Shown piece by piece: positions 1 to 14,071 of a DNA stretch of 26,395 nt (position 1 is its first letter; every line of letters starts with the position of its first letter). Origin of the DNA: Chthonomonadales bacterium (lineage in GTDB: Bacteria > Armatimonadota > Chthonomonadetes > Chthonomonadales > Chthonomonadaceae); assembly GCA_038217285.1 (NCBI GenBank), contig JBBQPO010000053.1, positions 1-26,395 of the forward strand. The letters run 5' to 3'. A model generated the notes under the pieces. The model was not told where the DNA came from and made no database searches. It worked only from the letters and a program-made list of their open reading frames with translations. The position numbers were made by a program, and so were the translations under genes.

Positions 1-1013
1 TTTTCCAGTACGACAGGGGGTACGTCCCGGATCGTATATTTCATTGCGGACAACCCGACCCCGCCCTGTTTCACGTCGTAGACCTGCTCGCCGGGGACGA
101 ACTGCCCGTCTTTGGCCTTCTTTACCGTATCGAAGACGGCGGTATCGATGTGCTTGACCATGCTGGTCAGGACGCTGCCGGGAGCCTCATCATCCTGATC
201 GCGATCAACTCCGATGGCGTAAAAGCCCTTGCCCTTCTCCTTAGCGGCTTGAATCACGCCGAGGCCCGCTTTGCCTGCAGCCTGAAACACGATGTCTGCC
301 CCGTTGCCAAAGAGTTGATTCGCCTGATTTTTCCCTTTGCTGACATCGTTCCAGTCGCCGGTATAAGAGGCCAGAACCTGCTTTTCGGGGTCGAAACCCG
401 CCGCCTTGGCGCCGGCTTTGTAGCCTGCCTCGAACTTCTCGATCAGCGGGATCTGCATCCCGCCGACGAAACCGATCTTCTTCGTCTTGCTGACGGCCGC
501 CGCGACATAACCGGCCAGAAACGAGCCCTGCTCTTCCTTGAACTTCAGAGAGACACAGTTCGTCGCTCCCGCAGGCGCGTTGCCGTCCACGATGGCGAAC
601 TTCACGCCCGGCGACTCGGCAGCGACCTGTTTCAGGGCGTCCTCCATCGCGAACCCGACGGCGATCACAACGTCGTAGCCCTGTGTGGCGAAGGTGCGCA
701 GATTGGAGGTGTAGTCGGCTGCCGACTTCGTCTCGACATACTTAATGTCGTCCGTGCCGAGCCCCAGTTCCTTCTGCGCCTTCTGCAGCCCGGCCCAGGC
801 TGCGGCATTGAACGATTTATCGTCTACACCGCCGATATCGAGCACCAGGGCCGCACGGAAGCGTTTGCCCGCCACAGCCACAGGCTTCGTTCCGTCGGCC
901 GGTTTCGGCGTATCCCCTCCGGTTGTCTCCGACTTGGGGCCGGGACAGCCTGTCAGCCCCACGATGGCCAACAGTCCCATCAGACAGACCGCTCTTCGGG
1001 TGTTCGTTTGCAT
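1..1013 (-). CDS. BMP family ABC transporter substrate-binding lipoprotein (PnrA/TmpC-like, probably nucleoside-binding); 3' end runs off the window
   Basis: Not in the ORF track because there is no stop in the window; translated by hand. ATG at 1013 follows SD GGGAGAGG. Sequence begins MQTNTRRAVCLMGLLAIVGLTGC (lipobox LTGC) and contains BMP motifs GGVDDKSFN, EEQGSFLAG, KIGFVGG, GADIVFQAAG, AIGVDRDQ and LTSMVK. Confidence 0.93.
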   Translation of the reverse strand, partial: MQTNTRRAVCLMGLLAIVGLTGCPGPKSETTGGDTPKPADGTKPVAVAGKRFRAALVLDIGGVDDKSFNAAAWAGLQKAQKELGLGTDDIKYVETKSAADYTSNLRTFATQGYDVVIAVGFAMEDALKQVAAESPGVKFAIVDGNAPAGATNCVSLKFKEEQGSFLAGYVAAAVSKTKKIGFVGGMQIPLIEKFEAGYKAGAKAAGFDPEKQVLASYTGDWNDVSKGKNQANQLFGNGADIVFQAAGKAGLGVIQAAKEKGKGFYAIGVDRDQDDEAPGSVLTSMVKHIDTAVFDTVKKAKDGQFVPGEQVYDVKQGGVGLSAMKYTIRDVPPVVLE

Positions 1014-1086: not shown

Positions 1087-2769
1087 TCAGCGCATCTTGT
1101 GGATCGCTTCGCCTTTGACATCCAGCGCCGCTTCGCCCATCGCTTCGGAGAGGGTGGGGTGGGCGTGAATCGTCGTCATCAACTCTTCGATGGTCGCTTC
1201 CAGCTTGATCGCGACGACCGCTTCATGGATCATCTCGGTCGCGTAGGGGCCGACGATGTGAACGCCGAGAACTTCCCCGTATTTGCGCTCCGTGATGACC
1301 TTGACCATGCCTTCTTGCTCGTTCAGGGCCATGGCGCGGCCGAGAGGACGGAACGGGAAGCGTCCGGTCATCACGTCGTAGCCCTTCGCCCGGGCTTCGT
1401 CCTCGGTCAAGCCGACGGAGGCCAGTTCCGGCGATGTGTAGATCGGAGCGGGGACCGCGCGATAGTCCATCTTGACCTGATGTCCCATGGCATTTTCCGA
1501 AGCCACGATGCCCATGTGGGAGCCGAGATGGGCGAGCAGCATCTTGCCCGTAATATCGCCGATCGCGTAGATGTTCGGCACCGTCGTTTGCAGATAGTCG
1601 TTTACGACGACGCCTCGCTTCGCCATGGGGCCTTCCGTCACGACCTGAACGCCGACCTTTTCGAGATTGAGGCCCTCGGTAAGAGGTTTGCGGCCCGCTC
1701 CGACAAGCACTACATCGACCTCGATGGTTTTGGTCTCCTGCTCGCCCTGAATGGTGACGATGCGGACGCCATCTTTCTGCTCGACCCTGGTGACTTTCGA
1801 ACTCAGATGGAAACGGATGCCCTGCTTCTTGAGGCTCTTGCGCAGTTCGGCGGCCACCTCTTTGTCGCCAGTCGGCAGGATTTCCGGGGCGATCTCGACC
1901 AGATCCACCTCCGCGCCAAGGCTACGGAACACATAGGCGAACTCCAGGCCGACCGCGCCGGCGCCGATCACGACCATGCGTTTCGGACACTCTTTCGCAT
2001 AGACCGCTTCATCGCTCGTCCAGATACCGTTGCTGCTGATACCGCGGGGATCGAGCGGATCTTTCGCGAGGCCGGGAACGGGCGGCATGATCGGCACGGA
2101 TCCTGTCGCGAGGATGATATTCTTCGCGGTGATGCGCTCGGTTTTGCCGTCGGCGCCCACCACCTCGACCGTATTGGCATCGACCAGCGAGGCCGAACCG
2201 AGGACCGCGCGGACATGATTGCTTTTCAGCAGGGCGGAGACGCCGCCGCGCAGGGTGGTGACGACTTTCGTCTTCCGTTCCATCATCTTGGCGAAGTCGA
2301 AACCGATCTCGCCGCTGATGGTCACGCCCATCACCGCTGCCGTCCGTACATGATGCAGGCGCTCGGTGCTGGCGATGAGCGTTTTGGTGGGGATGCAGCC
2401 CCAGTTCAGACAGGTGCCGCCCCATTCGCTCGCTTCGCGCTCGATACAGACGGTGCGCGCGCCGAGCTGGGCGGCGCGAATGGCACAGACGTAACCGCCG
2501 GGGCCGGAGCCGATAACGACGATATCGGCGTCAAATTCTCCCGTTGGGGACATGCGTGGTTGCTCCTCTGGTTGGTTAGACAGCAGGCGGTCGACAATGT
2601 CGTTGACCTGCTGTTCATCCGGTATTTCCTCTATAATTATAGTACGTCGGGAAGTGTCGGGAAGTATCTCTGCAGGAGGCGGTTCGGCAACTACCTGACT
2701 CTGTTCGTCCGTGGTGAGGGCGGGGCTGGCGTTCTTGGCGGGGCGAGTAACGCGTTTTTTGTCGGACAC
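1087..2769 (-). CDS. lpdA: dihydrolipoyl dehydrogenase (E3) with N-terminal extension
   Basis: FAD-binding GSGPGG, redox disulfide GGTCLNWGCIPTK, NAD-binding GAGAVG, catalytic HAHPTLSE. GTG start at 2769 with GGAGG SD; alternative ATG at 2553. Confidence 0.96.
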   Translation of the reverse strand: MSDKKRVTRPAKNASPALTTDEQSQVVAEPPPAEILPDTSRRTIIIEEIPDEQQVNDIVDRLLSNQPEEQPRMSPTGEFDADIVVIGSGPGGYVCAIRAAQLGARTVCIEREASEWGGTCLNWGCIPTKTLIASTERLHHVRTAAVMGVTISGEIGFDFAKMMERKTKVVTTLRGGVSALLKSNHVRAVLGSASLVDANTVEVVGADGKTERITAKNIILATGSVPIMPPVPGLAKDPLDPRGISSNGIWTSDEAVYAKECPKRMVVIGAGAVGLEFAYVFRSLGAEVDLVEIAPEILPTGDKEVAAELRKSLKKQGIRFHLSSKVTRVEQKDGVRIVTIQGEQETKTIEVDVVLVGAGRKPLTEGLNLEKVGVQVVTEGPMAKRGVVVNDYLQTTVPNIYAIGDITGKMLLAHLGSHMGIVASENAMGHQVKMDYRAVPAPIYTSPELASVGLTEDEARAKGYDVMTGRFPFRPLGRAMALNEQEGMVKVITERKYGEVLGVHIVGPYATEMIHEAVVAIKLEATIEELMTTIHAHPTLSEAMGEAALDVKGEAIHKMR

Positions 2770-2876
2770 GCGGAAGCCTCCTGGCTATTCTATCCACTGT
2801 GGGAAGATGTGTCGGTGTGGGGAGAAGGCCGGCAAATGCCGCGCGTTTCTCTCCAGGCGACCCTGGCACAGCGGTA

Positions 2877-2906
2877 AGTATAGCATAAGCGACAGCGGCC
2901 CGTCAA
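2877..2906 (-). promoter_or_regulatory. sigma70-type promoter for lpdA-bmp
   Basis: Minus strand TTGACG-N18-TATACT with an extended -10 (TGC TATACT). Same architecture as the ilvB promoter at 20762-20791. Confidence 0.7.
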
Positions 2907-2950
2907 CGCGGGGAGAGGGCGTCCTCGACTTCGGCGCGCGTCGGAAGAGA
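2903..2950 (-). repeat. displaced, diverged duplicate of the rbsK 3' end (att-like boundary)
   Basis: Translates as SLPTRAEVEDALSPR* versus the rbsK end SLPTRSEVEAALPVRVTPQN*. Positions 2915-2950 match 5356-5391 at 30/36 nt, and 4 of the 6 differences are synonymous. Confidence 0.8.
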
Positions 2951-3042
2951 AATATGCCCGTCCGCTTCTGTCGCACCCTGGAGCGGCGTAACGCAGTTGA
3001 GGAGACGGAAGCGTTACGTAATGCTTCGGGAGTGGCAATCTG

Positions 3043-3363
3043 ATGCCTCAACCCAAGATCCATGCTTCCAATGCGGCGCGTCAGGCGGCTTTTCGCGCTC
3101 GCCGTGACCAGACCCGTCAGGCGGAGATTGCCGCCAAGGGGTTGCCTTCGCTCCCAATTATTGCCAGTCTGCCTGGGGGGGCGCGTTGGAATGCCTCGTT
3201 CAAAGCGGCTCATGAGTTGATCGCAGGTAGCCTGCGTGAGATGCAGGACTATTGCGAGGATCGCTCTGAGAACTGGCAAGAGAGCGAACGCGGCGAAGCA
3301 CATCAAGAGAAGATCACCTCGGTGGAAAGCGTCTTCGATGCCTTGGGCGATCTACTCTCGTAA
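3043..3363 (+). CDS. hypothetical 106-aa protein, probable IS passenger, with basic N-terminal SNAARQAAFRARR helix and DRSENWQESERGE motif
   Basis: Intact ORF with GGGAG SD. Its ATG overlaps the TGA of an upstream frame (TGATG). It lies ~160 nt from the IS21-like end. Confidence 0.75.
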   Translation: MPQPKIHASNAARQAAFRARRDQTRQAEIAAKGLPSLPIIASLPGGARWNASFKAAHELIAGSLREMQDYCEDRSENWQESERGEAHQEKITSVESVFDALGDLLS

Positions 3364-3522
3364 GGTTCGTCCGGACCTGCTGTTGCGCCCGAGGCGATTT
3401 TCCCTTCGCTCTCGGGCCTGCGGCCCGTTCCCTGCGGCAAAATCGCTGGCTCTGAGCCTGTAGGGACAGTGGCGAGTATTCGGAAAGGAGGCGTCCACAA
3501 CCGTTTCGATTTACCCTCGTAG

Positions 3523-3570
3523 GTGGGCCAATCTCGAATATCGAAGTGGGCCAAACCGGGTTGTCAAAAC
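3523..3570. mobile_element. IS21-family-like terminal repeat region (single end)
   Basis: Two GTGGGCCAA units 23 bp apart (3523, 3546) ending in TGTCAAAAC. Reiterated subterminal repeats are typical of IS21 ends. It abuts the point where the neighbouring transposase homology stops. Confidence 0.6.
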
Positions 3571-3829
3571 CAAGGAGATAGACGCCCTCGGGATCGTAAC
3601 AAAACAACTCGAAGAAGCGCCATTGGATGGCTTCCCAGTCGATCTTGGTATGGAAGAAGCGATGCACGGTGCGGTAGCTGGCTCCTGTTGGGGTCCATCG
3701 GGAGATACCTAACTGAGTGATGCGTCCGGTCATGGCGAGCATGGCCACGACGATAGAATGCAGTTGCCGACAGGAAGTTTTGGTCAACTCGGGTGTAAGG
3801 GCGAGTAAGAGTGGTAAAATAGGAATCAT
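3571..3829 (-). pseudogene. N-terminal fragment (~86 codons) of an IS4/IS701-like DDE transposase
   Basis: MIPILPLLLAL...RQLHSIVVAMLAMTGRITQLGISRW...SYRTVHRFF...VYLL matches the N-terminus of this transposase group as I recall it. It is cut just before the expected first catalytic Asp. The rest of ORF 3314..3829 is read-through into the IS21-like end. Confidence 0.8.
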
Positions 3830-3915
3830 GGGTTTTCGGCCTTCGACAGTTGTTGGATTGGCGTCTACAACTTCGATCCGAAAGCCCTATTCTCATTCAG
3901 GATGCGCCACTCGTT

Positions 3916-3930
3916 TTGGCGAAGGTATTG
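3916..3930 (-). repeat. probable left terminal inverted repeat of the IS4/IS701-like element
   Basis: CAATACCTTCGCCAA on the minus strand, ~100 nt upstream of the transposase ATG. It resembles termini I recall for this group. No partner end is in the window. Confidence 0.55.
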
Positions 3931-4138
3931 GCTTATAGCGAGCATTATCCTGCGGATGTGATCGTCATGCTAATCTCCTGTCTTCCCTTACGCGACCAAC
4001 CCGGAGAAGGCCTTGATCTCTCTTGGACCGAGGTATCTTGAGAAGATCAGGCTGAACAATCTCCGCATATCTTCGAACGTATTGCACCGGGGAATCATAC
4101 TGCGCTCTTGTATTACTGATGTCGTCAACCAAGTATCT

Positions 4139-4462
4139 TCATCGATAAAGGACCAGCACTCTCTCTTTTGGGTCGTCGGTTTTCCGCGACTTTATGCCGA
4201 TTTCAATCTCTTGATCCAGTGCATCGAGGCATTGAAACAGTCGGTCTATTGTAAACCCACTCAAACGTCCACGAACGATGTTGCTGACATCGGGTTGGGA
4301 CAGATTCATACGCTGTGCGGCCTCAGTTTGCGTCCATTTTGCATCGGCTATTAGATGTTCTATGTAGAGAGCGATACGGGCTTTGGCCTGTCGATCACTC
4401 GGATTGGGCAGGCCTAGATCGGCGAAAACGTTACCGCTTCCCTCCTGAATCTCTGGTTCCAT
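4139..4462 (-). CDS. XRE/HTH_37 family antitoxin (HigA-like)
   Basis: MEPEIQEGSGNVFADLGLP...WTQTEAAQRMNLSQPDVSNIVRGRLSGFTIDRL. ATG at 4462 with AGGAG SD. The ORF-track start at 4735 is an overextension. Confidence 0.92.
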   Translation of the reverse strand: MEPEIQEGSGNVFADLGLPNPSDRQAKARIALYIEHLIADAKWTQTEAAQRMNLSQPDVSNIVRGRLSGFTIDRLFQCLDALDQEIEIGIKSRKTDDPKERVLVLYR

Positions 4463-4472
4463 ACTCTTTCTC

Positions 4473-4848
4473 CTATTGCTTTTTGACCCCATAAAGCGCC
4501 TTGTAGTGCTTATCGGCATCACTGAGACGCGATTTGATAGTATTGACATCCTGTTGAGAAGTCCGGATTCCTGATTTGCTCTTCTTCTGAAATGCGTGGA
4601 GCACATAGACGGCTTCTGCAAAACGGACGGTGTATATGCATCTATAGGTGTCGCCATCATAATCGTCCTTGATCTCCAGTACTTTGGCTCCACTAAAACC
4701 ACGAAGGACACTGGCGTTATGAGGCTTGCCCCCAAAATTGCACTTGGAGCAGAGCCTTTCCCACCACATCCTTCACGTCTTCCGGCATTTCTCTTACATC
4801 ATCCCGAGAAGAACCCACCCAGTAAACGGGACGAAGGTTAATTTCCAT
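4473..4848 (-). pseudogene. RelE/ParE superfamily (Gp49/HigB-like) toxin with a +1 frameshift
   Basis: N-part MEINLRPVYWVGSSRDD...LLQVQF and C-part GGKPHNA...DTYRCIYTVRFAEAVYVLHAFQKKSKSGI are in different frames. Total length is 376 nt (3n+1), with the break at TTTTGGGGG (4729-4737). Confidence 0.88.
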
Positions 4849-4870
4849 GCTATCGGTTCCCTTCGACCCA

Positions 4871-4899
4871 ATTATAGCCGATTTACTATAGTTCGTCAA
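4871..4899 (-). promoter_or_regulatory. promoter of the higBA-like module with overlapping palindromic operator
   Basis: TTGACG-N17-TATAAT. Inverted repeat TATAG-N8-CTATA (4873-4890) covers the spacer and -10. Confidence 0.8.
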
Positions 4900-4936
4900 T
4901 GGCCAATGGGATTACTTTCGAAGTCCAACCGTTACC

Positions 4937-4978
4937 TTATACGGGTAGATGAGTATCGAAGAAGTGCTTGGTTGCCAC
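4937..4978 (-). pseudogene. 5' stub of a PIN-domain (VapC-like) toxin
   Basis: GTG overlaps the upstream stop (TAGTG). Reads MATKHFFDTHLPV*, i.e. the hydrophobic-D-T-H start of PIN toxins, then ends. Confidence 0.5.
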
Positions 4979-5197
4979 TAAATATCGATGTCCTCACCCC
5001 GCCATTCGGCGCTCTTGAAATCTTCTTCTGTGAGTGCCTGGAGTTGCGGAAACATGCCGAATATGATCATCTTCGGCTGCATTTCAGTCGCCTCCGGTTC
5101 CTCGGAAATAACCGTCACCTTGTATTTTCCGAGTCTTCGACAGTTTGCTGAACTGCTTGATGAGTTGTTCGGGCGTTCCTTCATAGACGTGTGCCAT
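4978..5197 (-). pseudogene. small acidic putative antitoxin (VapB-like), +1 frameshift
   Basis: GGAGGT SD and ATG at 5197 give MAHVYEGTPEQLIKQFSKLSKTRK. The reading continues in another frame as YKVTVISEEP...FGMFPQLQALTEEDFKSAEWRGEDIDI*. Total length is 220 nt (3n+1), with the break at an A4 run (5125-5128). Confidence 0.65.
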
Positions 5198-5227
5198 GTG
5201 TCTTACCTCCGGTTTCATCTTCTCTCT

Positions 5228-5236
5228 ATTATATCA
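5228..5236 (-). promoter_or_regulatory. extended -10 promoter for the vapBC-like relic
   Basis: TGA-TATAAT ~30 nt upstream of the ATG at 5197. Confidence 0.5.
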
Positions 5237-5328
5237 GGACTTACAGGAGAGAGCAGGGTATTGCCTCCGGCGGTCAGGCCAACGCCTGTTCTTTTCAGGT
5301 CGTTAGATCGATATGCGGCCAGATGAAT

Positions 5329-6273
5329 TTAGTTCTGCGGCGTTACGCGTACTGGAAGGGCGGCCTCGACTTCGGAGCGGGTCGGGAGGGAGGGCTGCGC
5401 GCCCGCTCGCGTGACGGAGATGGCGGCGGCCTGGGCGGCAAACCGGGCCGCCTCGTCCAGCGAACGGCCTTCCGCGATAGCTACCGCGAGTGCGCCCGTG
5501 AAGCAGTCCCCGGCGGCCGTGGTATCGACGGCGGTAACGGCAAAGGCCGGTAGGCGACGAATGCCCGTGCCATCCGCCAGGACACATCCGTTTTCGCCCA
5601 GAGTGACGACAACAGCCTTGACGCCCCGGTCCAGCAGACGAGAGGCCACCGATTCCCAATCAAGGCCGTCGATTGTCTCGTAGCCGAGCAGAGCCGCAGC
5701 TTCGTGTTCGTTCGGTGTCAACACATCGATCTGCGTCAGCAGCGAATCGGGCAGGGGGGCGGTAGGAGAGGCGGGAGCCGGATTCAGGATGACCCGAACA
5801 CCGGCGGCGTGGGCTCGTTGTGCGGCATAGAGGACGGTCTCGACGGGGATCTCCATCTGGAGAAGGACGGCGGACGCGCTTTCGATAGCGGAGAACGCCT
5901 GCTCGACATCGCTCGCCGTGACCTTATAGTTCGCTCCGGACGCGACCGTGATCGCGTTTTGTCCCTTCGCATCGACACCGATCAGCGCGACGCCTGTCGG
6001 TTCTGTCGGGTCGGTTTGCAGGAAGGTGGTATCGATACCATCGGCCTGCAAACCGACCCGGATGGCCTCCCCGAAGAGGTCCGGGCCGACACGCCCTACA
6101 AAGGTGACCTCCGCGCCCAGGCGGGCGGCGGCGACCGCCTGATTGGCGCCCTTCCCACCCGGAATCTGCCGAAACGCTTCTCCCAGGACTGTCTCGCCGG
6201 GAGCTGGAATATGTGCCGAGCGTACAACGAGATCCATATTCGCGCTGCCGATGACGACAAGACGGGGCTTCAT
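5329..6273 (-). CDS. rbsK: ribokinase
   Basis: GSANMD, PGGKGANQAVAAARLG, LNPAP, TPNEHEA and DTTAAGDCFTG PfkB motifs. ATGA overlap with the upstream gene. Confidence 0.95.
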   Translation of the reverse strand: MKPRLVVIGSANMDLVVRSAHIPAPGETVLGEAFRQIPGGKGANQAVAAARLGAEVTFVGRVGPDLFGEAIRVGLQADGIDTTFLQTDPTEPTGVALIGVDAKGQNAITVASGANYKVTASDVEQAFSAIESASAVLLQMEIPVETVLYAAQRAHAAGVRVILNPAPASPTAPLPDSLLTQIDVLTPNEHEAAALLGYETIDGLDWESVASRLLDRGVKAVVVTLGENGCVLADGTGIRRLPAFAVTAVDTTAAGDCFTGALAVAIAEGRSLDEAARFAAQAAAISVTRAGAQPSLPTRSEVEAALPVRVTPQN

Positions 6274-8522
6274 ACCGATCCGGTCTTCCGGGCGGGAACT
6301 GTCTTTCCTGGGTCGCCCTTGAACTGACGGAGGGCTTCCTGTAGGCGATGCAGGGCGTCTTCCGCCCGCTTCACCTCCTGCGGTGGAGCGATCCCTTTGC
6401 CGTAGTAGTAACGGTCATGGAGTTCGGTCAGTTCGGTCAGGGCGGCACCGGCTGCCGAAGCCGCCATCCGAGCGTGGATCATCGTCTCAAACTCGACCGT
6501 CGTCATGTTCGAAGGGCGGACCAGACCGCGTCGGGCGAACAGTTTGATGGCGGCGCTGTACGCGGCGAGGATCGCTGGATTTCGGGGTGGACGGGTGAGA
6601 CCTTTTCTGCCCGGCACTCTTCCAAAGGGCTTGATACGGTCGATCAACTCAGTTTTCACGAGATAGCCGACGAGCAGCACCAGGATCAGCTCGATCACTT
6701 TCGGACCCATGCCCTGCTTCCCCAGCCAGGCCAAGAGTGAGAGGCTCTTCTTCTTCGAGGGGTCGTTTCGGGCGGTGATGTCGGTCGCGCCTGCGGTAGC
6801 ATCGAACGTCACCCATCCGACATTCGGAAAAAAGACCTCCGTCCAGATATGGCGATGTTTGTCTTTCACGATATAGGTATGGGAGCTGGCCTCATCGCCG
6901 GGCAGGAACCCGAGCGCCATACGGGCTGGGATGCCAGCGTAGCGGCACATCATGGTCATGGCCGCGCCGAAGCTGTCGCAGTAGCCCATTTTGGACTCGG
7001 TTAGGAAATAGGCGACTCGATCGCGGTCGCTTGGCGCGGCAGGGGTATTCAGGTTGTACTTGCAGCTCGCACCGATGTTTTGCTGAATGGCCATGACCTT
7101 ATCATAGTTGTTTGTCAGGCCCCTGGTCCACTTAGCAGCCAGGTCCGCCAATACGGGGTTGCTGAACGTCCCGCGCTGGAGGTAGACGCGGGAAATTTCG
7201 TCAGGAATCTGACCTGCCGGAGCGGCGCGCAGTACGTCCGGGGAGGTGGACGGCGCCACCGAGACGACGTCGTACTCGGCATCCGCCTGTAGGGAGACGC
7301 TCGGGTTCAGTGCGCCCACATAGTCCGTCTGAATGTTGAGCGTCTTTATCTCCAGTTCTTTTATCCGGGCGGCTCCATAAATCTGCTTGGAGCCTACACC
7401 CAGTATTTTGAAGTGTTGACGGACCAGCCGACTGCCGTTCATTTTTCGCTCGTCCAGATCCCACCGACCAGGAGAGAGTTGGAAATGCCCCCGTGAGTCC
7501 TGGCTTGCATCCTGGGGCTTATTGGAGTAGCTTTCCAGATACGCCTGTTGTTGTGTCGTGCTCGAAAGGTGCTCGAACTTGGCGCTGTTCTGGAAACTGT
7601 GTCCGGTGTACTTATCAAAGGTTCCGGCGCGCCAGTAGAGGGGCTCGGCGCAATGAACTTCCAGTACCGGGCTATCCGTCGCTGTCACAGGACCGGAGGC
7701 GAGCTCATAGTTGTTTTGTTCGTTGCTGTTGAGGGCACCAGGCACGGACTTTGTGATCGCTCCCCGGATCGCACTTAACGTTCCCTGGGGGAAGAGCCGT
7801 TCGCCGAAGAACTGCATGGGAAGGACCGTCAAACGTGCCAGTATGATTGCGCCAAGAAAACAGCCGACTGCCAGGGCGAACTGGCTGCCGAAGAGGACGG
7901 ATCGCCTTTCCTCCCCCGACTTGCGGAGCGTATTCGCCTGGGTTCGCAGGTAGTTTTCGTGGATCAGCAGAAAGGTCGCCGCGCTAAAAAAGAGGAGGAA
8001 AGCGTTTTGGGCTTCGACCTCCGTTGTCGACGTGCTGACGAGTGCGATCAGCGTCATACCGGGGACGCAGGCGAAGAGCACCGCCGCATTGTTGGTCAAT
8101 GTGTAGGCGTGCAGAATCGCCACCCATGTCAGGGCGATCTGAAGGCTTCGTGAAGGCGAATCGCCACTGGTGGCACCGTGACTGAAGAGCAAGCTGAGCA
8201 GGAAGAAGAAGCCTAGCAGTGTCAGCAGCGGAACCTGCAGCCCACGCAGCGATATCCCGCGCACCCGCAGTATGTAACTCGCGCAATAGCCGCCGGTCGC
8301 CAGCAGGTACGTCAGGATGGCAAAGCCCGAGTCTTCAAGGCTGAAGTTGACGGCGTAGAGCGCGGACAGCGTGACGATGGCGCCTGCAAGATAGAGCCAG
8401 GGGCTGGCAGGGGCATCGCTATCGCTGCGGGTCGTGTCACCTCGCATCGAAACGGAAATGCGTGCTGTGTCGGCCGAGTCCTGTCTATCAGGCGCAGGCA
8501 GCGGTAGATTAGAGACGTTCAC
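6270..8522 (-). CDS. membrane-anchored transglutaminase-like protein (TgpA-like; DUF3488 + TGase + DUF4129-type)
   Basis: Multiple N-terminal TM helices, PLYWRAGTFDKY, and a Cys-His-Asp triad (GYCDSF / HIWTEV / GWVTFDAT), followed by a C-terminal TM and a basic domain. Confidence 0.9.
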   Translation of the reverse strand: MNVSNLPLPAPDRQDSADTARISVSMRGDTTRSDSDAPASPWLYLAGAIVTLSALYAVNFSLEDSGFAILTYLLATGGYCASYILRVRGISLRGLQVPLLTLLGFFFLLSLLFSHGATSGDSPSRSLQIALTWVAILHAYTLTNNAAVLFACVPGMTLIALVSTSTTEVEAQNAFLLFFSAATFLLIHENYLRTQANTLRKSGEERRSVLFGSQFALAVGCFLGAIILARLTVLPMQFFGERLFPQGTLSAIRGAITKSVPGALNSNEQNNYELASGPVTATDSPVLEVHCAEPLYWRAGTFDKYTGHSFQNSAKFEHLSSTTQQQAYLESYSNKPQDASQDSRGHFQLSPGRWDLDERKMNGSRLVRQHFKILGVGSKQIYGAARIKELEIKTLNIQTDYVGALNPSVSLQADAEYDVVSVAPSTSPDVLRAAPAGQIPDEISRVYLQRGTFSNPVLADLAAKWTRGLTNNYDKVMAIQQNIGASCKYNLNTPAAPSDRDRVAYFLTESKMGYCDSFGAAMTMMCRYAGIPARMALGFLPGDEASSHTYIVKDKHRHIWTEVFFPNVGWVTFDATAGATDITARNDPSKKKSLSLLAWLGKQGMGPKVIELILVLLVGYLVKTELIDRIKPFGRVPGRKGLTRPPRNPAILAAYSAAIKLFARRGLVRPSNMTTVEFETMIHARMAASAAGAALTELTELHDRYYYGKGIAPPQEVKRAEDALHRLQEALRQFKGDPGKTVPARKTGSV

Positions 8523-13465: not shown

Positions 13466-14071
13466 ATGGCAACGGAAATTTCGGATTTGGAAGTCAGTCC
13501 AGAGGAGTATCTGGTGCGGGAGCGGCAGGCAGAGTACCGGCACGAATATGTTGCCGGGCAGATAGTCGCGATGTCGGGCGCAACGCGCAGACACAATCTC
13601 ATTTCGGTGAACATGACGCGTGAGATCAGTAACAGTTTGAAGGGACGTCCCTGCGAAGTCTATGCCGCCGATATGCGTGTGCGGCTGGAAGGGGCAAGGT
13701 TCTATACCTATCCCGATGTCGTGGCAGTGTGTGGTGAGCCACGGTTCGAAGATGGCGAACTCGACACCCTGTTGAATCCGACTGTGATCGTCGAGACGCT
13801 TTCGCCTACGACAGCAGCCTATGACCGGGGCGACAAGTTTGCCTACTATCGTCAGATCGCCTCCCTGCAGGACTATGTGTTGATTTCACAGGACAGAATG
13901 AGGGTAGAACATTATGTCCGAAACGGAGAGTTCTGGCTTTACAATGCGCTGGACGGTTCGGCGGAGGCGCTGTCTCTGGCTTCGATCAAATGTCAACTCC
14001 CACTCGCTGAGATCTACGACAAGGTCTCCTTTGATGCAGACGAGGAGCCGCCGATTTCGCGGCCTGAGTAA
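13466..14071 (+). CDS. Uma2 (DUF820) family putative endonuclease
   Basis: EEYL..E..AEYRHEYVAG.IVAMSG, YTYPDVV, NPTVIVETLSPTT..YDRGDKF..Y. GGAGG SD. Confidence 0.93.
   Translation: MATEISDLEVSPEEYLVRERQAEYRHEYVAGQIVAMSGATRRHNLISVNMTREISNSLKGRPCEVYAADMRVRLEGARFYTYPDVVAVCGEPRFEDGELDTLLNPTVIVETLSPTTAAYDRGDKFAYYRQIASLQDYVLISQDRMRVEHYVRNGEFWLYNALDGSAEALSLASIKCQLPLAEIYDKVSFDADEEPPISRPE

Follow-up and report, generated by a model that had tools for sequence, protein, structure and literature searches.

A diverged second copy of the rbsK 3' end flanks foreign DNA in a Chthonomonadales genome and probably marks an insertion into the gene

Introduction

The element e14 and phage 21 integrate into the 3' end of a protein-coding gene, icd of Escherichia coli, where a copy of the gene end on the element side completes the gene and the original end persists on the far side as a pseudogene, icdC (the structure of e14 and icd is as given in PMC13626634). 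In MG1655 the icd end and icdC are identical at 153 of 165 nt, with nine synonymous and two non-synonymous codon differences, and just upstream only 10 of 40 nt agree. This kind of event is ordinary, since 43.4% of the approximately 1.75 million islands mapped in PMC12424338, where an island is recognized by its integrase and by a reference genome with the matching empty site, lie in coding sequences. Here we describe a locus of similar anatomy on a metagenome-type contig of a Chthonomonadales bacterium (Armatimonadota; GenBank assembly GCA_038217285.1, contig JBBQPO010000053.1). We analyzed the whole contig of 26,395 nt (hereafter the window), and all coordinates are positions in it. Between the ribokinase gene rbsK and the dihydrolipoyl dehydrogenase gene lpdA, a diverged direct repeat of the rbsK end encloses a foreign insert with mobile-type genes. 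The kinase gene is intact, and the repeat copy next to lpdA is a leftover of ancestral type.

Results

The rbsK end is present twice

The genes around the leftover, the insert and rbsK are all carried on the minus strand. rbsK (5329-6273) encodes a ribokinase of 314 aa that is full-length and family-like (TIGR02152 at 360 bits against an equivalog cut-off of 299.65, profile positions 2-297 of 298; PfkB, PF00294). Its C-terminus reads TRAGAQPSLPTRSEVEAALPVRVTPQN before the stop codon. The minus-strand translation of 2903-3121 ends in TEADGHISLPTRAEVEDALSPR and a stop codon, and its last 48 nt (2903-2950, encoding SLPTRAEVEDALSPR and the stop) are a second copy of the rbsK end, as the initial annotation of this DNA had stated. 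We refer to these 48 nt as the leftover. The core of the repeat (2915-2950 and 5356-5391) agrees at 30 of 36 nt and includes the identical CCTCGACTTCGG (2923-2934 and 5364-5375). In its longer form, with a distal copy at 2916-2966 and a gene-proximal copy at 5357-5407 (rbsK codons ~290-306), it agrees at 40 of 51 nt and is the best direct repeat in 2500-6400. The demonstrable repeat length is 51-55 nt.

Shuffling upheld the significance of the 36-nt match. Among 300 dinucleotide-preserving shuffles, none reached 30/36 (maximum 24) or 40/51 (maximum 33), and the second-best ungapped match of the 36-mer across the window was 22/36. Smith-Waterman alignment of the two 171-nt ends scored 48, compared with a shuffle maximum of 33 (0 of 2000). 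The repeat is thus confirmed. The weaker similarity that had been noticed upstream to about 2971 is also present (12 of 21 nt identical), though the stretch before SLPTR, taken alone, is at chance level (521 of 2000 shuffles). Beyond the shared AL codons and through the stop, no similarity above chance was found (1042 of 2000 shuffles).

The leftover has the ending of related ribokinases

Setting aside the window's own protein, we compared the leftover with the 16 best ribokinase hits (P0002-P0017, all from Chthonomonadales, 73-83% identity). Eleven of them are 309 aa long, and all 11 end in SLPTRxEVxxxxxxR followed by the stop. P0016, a gene call of 493 aa that joins the C-terminal DUF4129 domain of the upstream TgpA-like transglutaminase to the ribokinase, has the same xxR ending; the remaining four proteins are 299, 314, 314 and 318 aa. 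Exchanging the last 20 residues of rbsK for the 15 of the leftover yields a protein of exactly 309 aa. A profile of the C-terminal 30 residues of these eleven 309-aa proteins was searched against all 861 six-frame peptides of the window. Its best match was rbsK itself (E 2e-18), and the second was the leftover, aligned over profile positions 16-30 up to the stop (E 9e-6, 21 bits); the third-best match had E 0.19. The register, the final Arg and the stop, together with this profile match, argue that the leftover is a true ribokinase C-terminus of the type found in the nearest relatives. It looks like the ancestral rbsK C-terminus, in line with the earlier proposal of an orphaned original end. 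No further ribokinase-like sequence was found upstream of the leftover in any frame.

The TGA of the leftover (2905-2903) lies, as previously located, inside the -35 element of a promoter-like TTGACG-18-TATACT upstream of lpdA (minus strand, 2906-2877; 10/12 with a TG extension), a candidate promoter recognized by consensus match only.

The odd tails of P0005, P0007 and P0009 were considered as signs of repeated insertion and rejected by eye. They are alike (DASSVTTSR, DASFVSR and GMSLTTH) and thus apparently reflect subclade variation.

The 12 shared codons of the two copies (S295-L306, 30 of 36 nt) contain four synonymous and two non-synonymous codon differences, so the earlier description of the changes as mostly synonymous holds by count. 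Both non-synonymous changes (S/A and A/D) are conservative and involve residues found in the ribokinase family. In the seven codons upstream of S295 (12 of 21 nt), one difference is synonymous and five are non-synonymous. The leftover retains S295, L296, P297, R299 and E301, all five, and the family-invariant residues R289, G291, A292 and Q293 upstream of codon 295 are all lost; this loss and retention suggest a junction near 2950/2951. Such a pattern would be expected if the leftover, from 2950 downward, had evolved within a working gene and had been cut at or just above codon 295.

The present tail of rbsK, PVRVTPQN and the stop (5329-5355), is not significantly similar in nucleotide sequence to what follows the leftover copy, and it extends five codons past the ancestral stop position. 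When it is read as AALPVR|VTPQN, AALPVR aligns with the family AALxxR, and an out-of-frame TAA directly follows the R309 codon (CGC G TAA; 5341-5349, minus strand). A one-base shift could therefore explain 314 instead of 309 aa equally well.

Foreign DNA with mobile-type genes lies between the copies

The segment between the two repeat copies (2967-5328, ~2.36 kb) is compositionally foreign. Its tetranucleotide correlation with the right arm of the window is 0.455, whereas seven chunks of the right arm give 0.90-0.945 and the left arm gives 0.942. The G+C content (GC) is ~0.60 in the host and drops to ~0.48 in part B of the insert (~3600-5250); in part A (2967 to ~3600) it is ~0.59. GC at third codon positions (GC3) is 0.48-0.63 in the insert genes, compared with 0.71-0.82 in 15 of the 16 flanking genes, the exception being a Uma2-family gene (0.63).

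Part A holds a near-perfect palindrome of 20 nt (3008-3027, from an inverted-repeat scan) just upstream of ORF106 (3043-3363, plus strand). This open reading frame (ORF) is intact and belongs to an unnamed family of ~105-aa helical proteins with 311 representative clusters at E<=1e-3 and 142 at E<=1e-10; its Atlas clusters are chiefly from Chloroflexota. The predicted fold has three long helices (AF2 model, predicted local distance difference test score 90). The family consensus is MPQPR..A.RQAAYR.R...GLP.LPAI..PG..RW...EM..Y...RSE.WQESERGE. ORF106 matched no Pfam or NCBIfam family and no plasmid, a fold search of the PDB returned nothing below E 1, and the only PHROGs match was a family of unknown function (E 4e-4).

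Farther along lies the N-terminal fragment of a DDE_5 transposase (3626-3829, minus strand; PF13546, E 4e-7, profile positions 2-59 of 272), the remnant of a truncated insertion sequence (IS). It is followed by an incomplete toxin-antitoxin pair of the HigB/HigA type. The HTH_37 (HigA-like) antitoxin gene is whole (4139-4462, minus strand; PF13744, E 7e-25, profile positions 1-80 of 80). The Gp49/HigB-like toxin gene is broken (4473-4911, minus strand; PF05973, E 2e-15; phrog_2523): its frame 4473-4772 covers only profile positions 25-89 of 90, and the N-terminal part appears to be in another frame (4717-4911) as the result of a frameshift. A strong promoter-like sequence, TTGACG-17-TATAAT (11/12), is located at 4899-4871. 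Two overlapping small frames (4978-5233, minus strand) had no hits in family searches; they are preceded by a TATAAT-like box and GGAGG and are possibly one frameshifted small gene.

The insert DNA had no match among plasmids and phages, and a tRNA/tmRNA search and Rfam (E<=1) detected none in or near it. That the insert is composite and eroded is evident from the transposase stump and from the shift in GC near 3600. The initial annotation had regarded everything between the copies as IS or toxin-antitoxin debris. This label is only partly right: ORF106 and the HTH_37 antitoxin gene are intact.

Gene neighborhood and linkage in relatives

rbsK overlaps by 4 nt at its start (6270-6273) with a gene for a TgpA-like transglutaminase (6270-8522, minus strand). 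To compare gene order, protein hits were assigned to a common contig when contig size and sources were equal. By this indirect test, 10 of the 14 close TgpA hits (P0242-P0255) share a contig with a ribokinase hit, which served as a positive control. The ten contigs are 49191, 12981, 46642, 6209, 54064, 16306, 6122, 13385, 25546 and 3134 nt long, seven of them at least 12.9 kb. These matches show that the TgpA-rbsK linkage is conserved and that the matching method works, among relatives that are distant (69-83% identity for rbsK and 59-73% for TgpA). The identities of rbsK and TgpA to the ten relatives rank alike, and rbsK itself therefore looks native.

The arms of the window have unequal distances to their nearest neighbors but the same composition. 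The closest lpdA relative (P0121, 93%) is in a 25-member cluster, with the next lpdA hits at 75-81%. rbsK and TgpA are singletons, and nothing is closer to them than 83% and 73%, respectively.

A 54-nt inverted repeat in perfect register within the rbsK coding sequence (6007-6060; 27-nt arms, 89% complementary, no spacer) spans the conserved segment GLQADGIDTTFLQTDP. Beyond the TgpA gene are genes for a DUF58 protein and a MoxR ATPase and housekeeping genes including leuA, ilvC, ilvN and ilvB. The Uma2-family gene (putative restriction endonuclease-like; 13466-14071) lies between a T2SSE ATPase gene and leuA, on the opposite (plus) strand and with GC 0.55 and GC3 0.63, and may be another small insertion.

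On the other side of the insert, lpdA (1087-2769, minus strand; TIGR01350, 546 bits) encodes an N-terminal extension of ~80 aa, with homologues of 560-580 aa. The extension (2554-2769, minus strand) precedes the FAD-binding fold. Many Chthonomonadaceae homologues are also 545-606 aa long; others are 483-490 aa and start near the internal Met, which has a GAGGAG box upstream. A BMP/PnrA-type lipoprotein gene (3-1013, minus strand) is cut by the contig end.

Discussion

We propose that a mobile element entered the last ~17 codons of rbsK in the direct ancestor of this Chthonomonadales genome, at a time when the rbsK stop would have overlapped the -35 element of the next gene, lpdA. The element would have supplied a diverged rbsK end of its own, so that the kinase remained full length (now 314 aa). 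The original end, of the 309-aa type, would have been displaced by 2.4 kb and would persist as a leftover that is not translated and still adjoins the lpdA promoter region. In our judgment, it is very probable that the original tail was displaced by an insertion. The means may have been site-specific recombination between the gene and an attachment site on the element (attP) that mimicked the rbsK 3' end, as for e14 and phage 21 in icd. The integrase and the greater part of the element would afterwards have been lost through internal deletions. Possible traces of this decay are the truncated transposase gene, the broken toxin gene and the change in GC at ~3600. We put this integrase-mediated, e14-like insertion and its later decay forward tentatively, as a course that could well have been taken but to which we give slightly less than even confidence. 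A co-oriented, diverged repeat around foreign DNA, next to a whole gene, is the anatomy of e14 in icd, and this favors site-specific integration. The present sequence data do not distinguish such integration from homology-facilitated uptake. Every insertion model requires an rbsK-lpdA junction in the direct ancestor, since the leftover is continuous with the DNA upstream of lpdA. This junction seems peculiar to this lineage.

Several results weigh against the proposed insertion. The repeat copies are short, with an identity of only 78-83%. Both the synonymous excess between them (P 0.068) and the step in identity near codon 295 (Fisher P 0.059) are suggestive and not significant. A one-base shift in a 309-aa end, native or element-borne, could have produced the 314-aa form, and a replacement tail is therefore not proven. 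The initial annotation had the present tail arrive with foreign DNA; the intervening DNA is indeed foreign, but the tail itself may be a shifted end of the family type. The integrase that it took to be lost has left no trace, with no tyrosine or serine recombinase or fragment in the 40 stop-to-stop frames of 2785-5328 (Pfam E<=1) and no integrase or recombinase gene among the ORFs elsewhere in the window.

The gene order of relatives likewise did not support the empty site predicted by the initial annotation, with rbsK directly before lpdA, as far as indirect contig matching among distant relatives can tell; by the standard which that annotation had set, this counts against its reading. None of the ten TgpA-rbsK contigs was found among the 120 lpdA homologues listed (58-93% identity), nor did any other contig from the rbsK or TgpA lists match there; in this comparison rbsK may lie at a contig end, and multi-member lpdA clusters show only their longest contig. 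The 19,581-nt contig of P0121 matches that of no rbsK or TgpA hit. In two Armatimonadota loci, rbsK has neither lpdA nor TgpA next to it; its neighbors are AhpC and an amidohydrolase in one (L003) and an SDR and a CAP-domain protein in the other (L079).

We also looked for further islands flanked by duplicated rbsK 3' ends. A profile search of genome contigs yielded at least 80 rbsK loci (43-57% identity), including, among those listed, the two from Armatimonadota. For 78 of 80 loci (two run off their contigs), flanks of up to 10 kb were searched with the locus's own last 16 aligned residues, with the window as positive control. None of the 78 loci, which are from distant phyla, had a leftover end, inserts above 10 kb being missed by this search. 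A match at L027 was rejected as a stump because it is a second full-length ribokinase gene. Given the distance of these loci and the length of the flanks, this is weak negative evidence. Our literature search turned up no report of ribokinase as an attachment site; large island catalogues lay outside that search.

Other explanations have to account for the same repeat. Homology-facilitated illegitimate recombination, as known from transformable bacteria, brings in foreign DNA beside a homologous anchor, with one junction that lacks homology. Members of this lineage are not known to be naturally transformable. Here, the rbsK of a related Chthonomonadales donor would have been imported with its tail and low-GC downstream DNA, by homology in or upstream of rbsK and an illegitimate join near recipient codon 290-295 that left the last codons of the recipient in place. 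Such an import would account for two 3' ends that are both complete and family-like, with mostly synonymous differences, for the sharp loss of similarity upstream of 2951-2966 and for the lack of an integrase, and 314-aa ribokinases do exist in the family (P0007 and P0009). It would need a separate prior event to put low-GC DNA behind the donor rbsK, and only by luck would the illegitimate junction lie in the final ~60 nt of the same gene. The like ranking of rbsK and TgpA relatives gives no sign of import, though a donor segment including TgpA would look identical. We regard this course, the main rival of the proposed one, as unlikely. Less probable again is an origin of the leftover from a second ribokinase gene, a paralogue or xenologue, which stood before lpdA and was deleted down to this stump, perhaps by the IS. 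The present rbsK and its tail would then be wholly native, and the low-GC DNA would have lain between the two genes. By contig matching, rbsK and lpdA do not share contigs in the relatives, which suggests that the order did not inherit their junction from its ancestor. Local deletions occurred, as the truncated DDE_5 element shows, and L027 has two full ribokinase genes 9 kb apart. However, the TgpA-linked rbsK of the nearest relatives, including P0016, is of the 309-aa xxR type, so the tail type of the leftover is the one expected for this very gene. The deletion would also have to end by chance where the repeat of the present gene begins, with both ends co-oriented.

An assembly artefact, in which the contig would join two related genomes inside a shared mobile sequence, appears very improbable. 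The window is a whole metagenome-type contig, and the nearest relative of lpdA (93%, from a 25-member cluster) is closer than any of rbsK or TgpA (at most 83% and 73%). Yet the two arms share their tetranucleotide profile (0.942 versus 0.90-0.945) and GC3 (0.75 versus 0.71-0.82), and this equal composition gives no sign of a chimeric contig. No repeat that could mislead an assembler was found inside the insert, and even in a chimera the rbsK stump before lpdA would call for an explanation. A chance resemblance between GC-rich stretches, for which only the short repeat length speaks, has a negligible probability: the shuffles (0 of 300 and 0 of 2000) and the profile match (E 9e-6), which is in frame and ends at the stop in the family register, exclude it.

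If the insertion was site-specific, ribokinase joins the coding genes that serve as attachment sites, as a first such case in the little-studied Armatimonadota. It is somewhat doubtful, though conceivable, that the rbsK 3' end is the attachment site of an undescribed family of Chthonomonadales elements that mimic its last 17-20 codons, with the present island as a decayed member. In a bolder and speculative version, the ORF106 family and the upstream palindrome would be the integration or excision machinery of such elements. The leftover would also mark the ancestral gene order at single-base resolution, with an lpdA promoter region that once overlapped the rbsK stop. For annotation the locus advises caution, as a 48-nt gene stump and a five-codon tail extension are easily overlooked.

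Among known systems, an IS target-site duplication resembles this locus in that a direct repeat flanks an insert with a transposase fragment. Such duplications span a few to ~14 bp and are identical when made. We rejected this origin: the repeat is 51 nt long at 78% identity with coding-type differences, and the IS stump (3626-3829) is internal and truncated. Homology-facilitated recombination differs in that a junction inside the last codons of the same gene is not expected. In the islands of PMC12424338, as described there, direct repeats of the target-gene 3' end flank foreign DNA and the integrity of the gene is kept, as here; those islands have an integrase and a reference empty site, neither of which was found for the rbsK insert. 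The e14 element is larger (15.2 kb, with a 165-nt repeat at 93%, against 2.4 kb with 36-51 nt at 78-83% here) and has intE and xisE, whereas the rbsK insert has no integrase or excisionase genes. The target gene differs as well, and the present rbsK tail runs five codons beyond the ancestral stop. The initial annotation had drawn the analogy with e14 in icd, and the locus bears it out in its co-oriented 3'-end repeat around foreign DNA and its whole gene. By count, the differences between the copies are mostly synonymous at both loci, an excess that is only suggestive for rbsK. In both, on the reading proposed here for rbsK, the foreign DNA lies in the 3' end of a coding gene that the element-side copy completes, the original end is a pseudogene on the far side, and the similarity stops sharply upstream.

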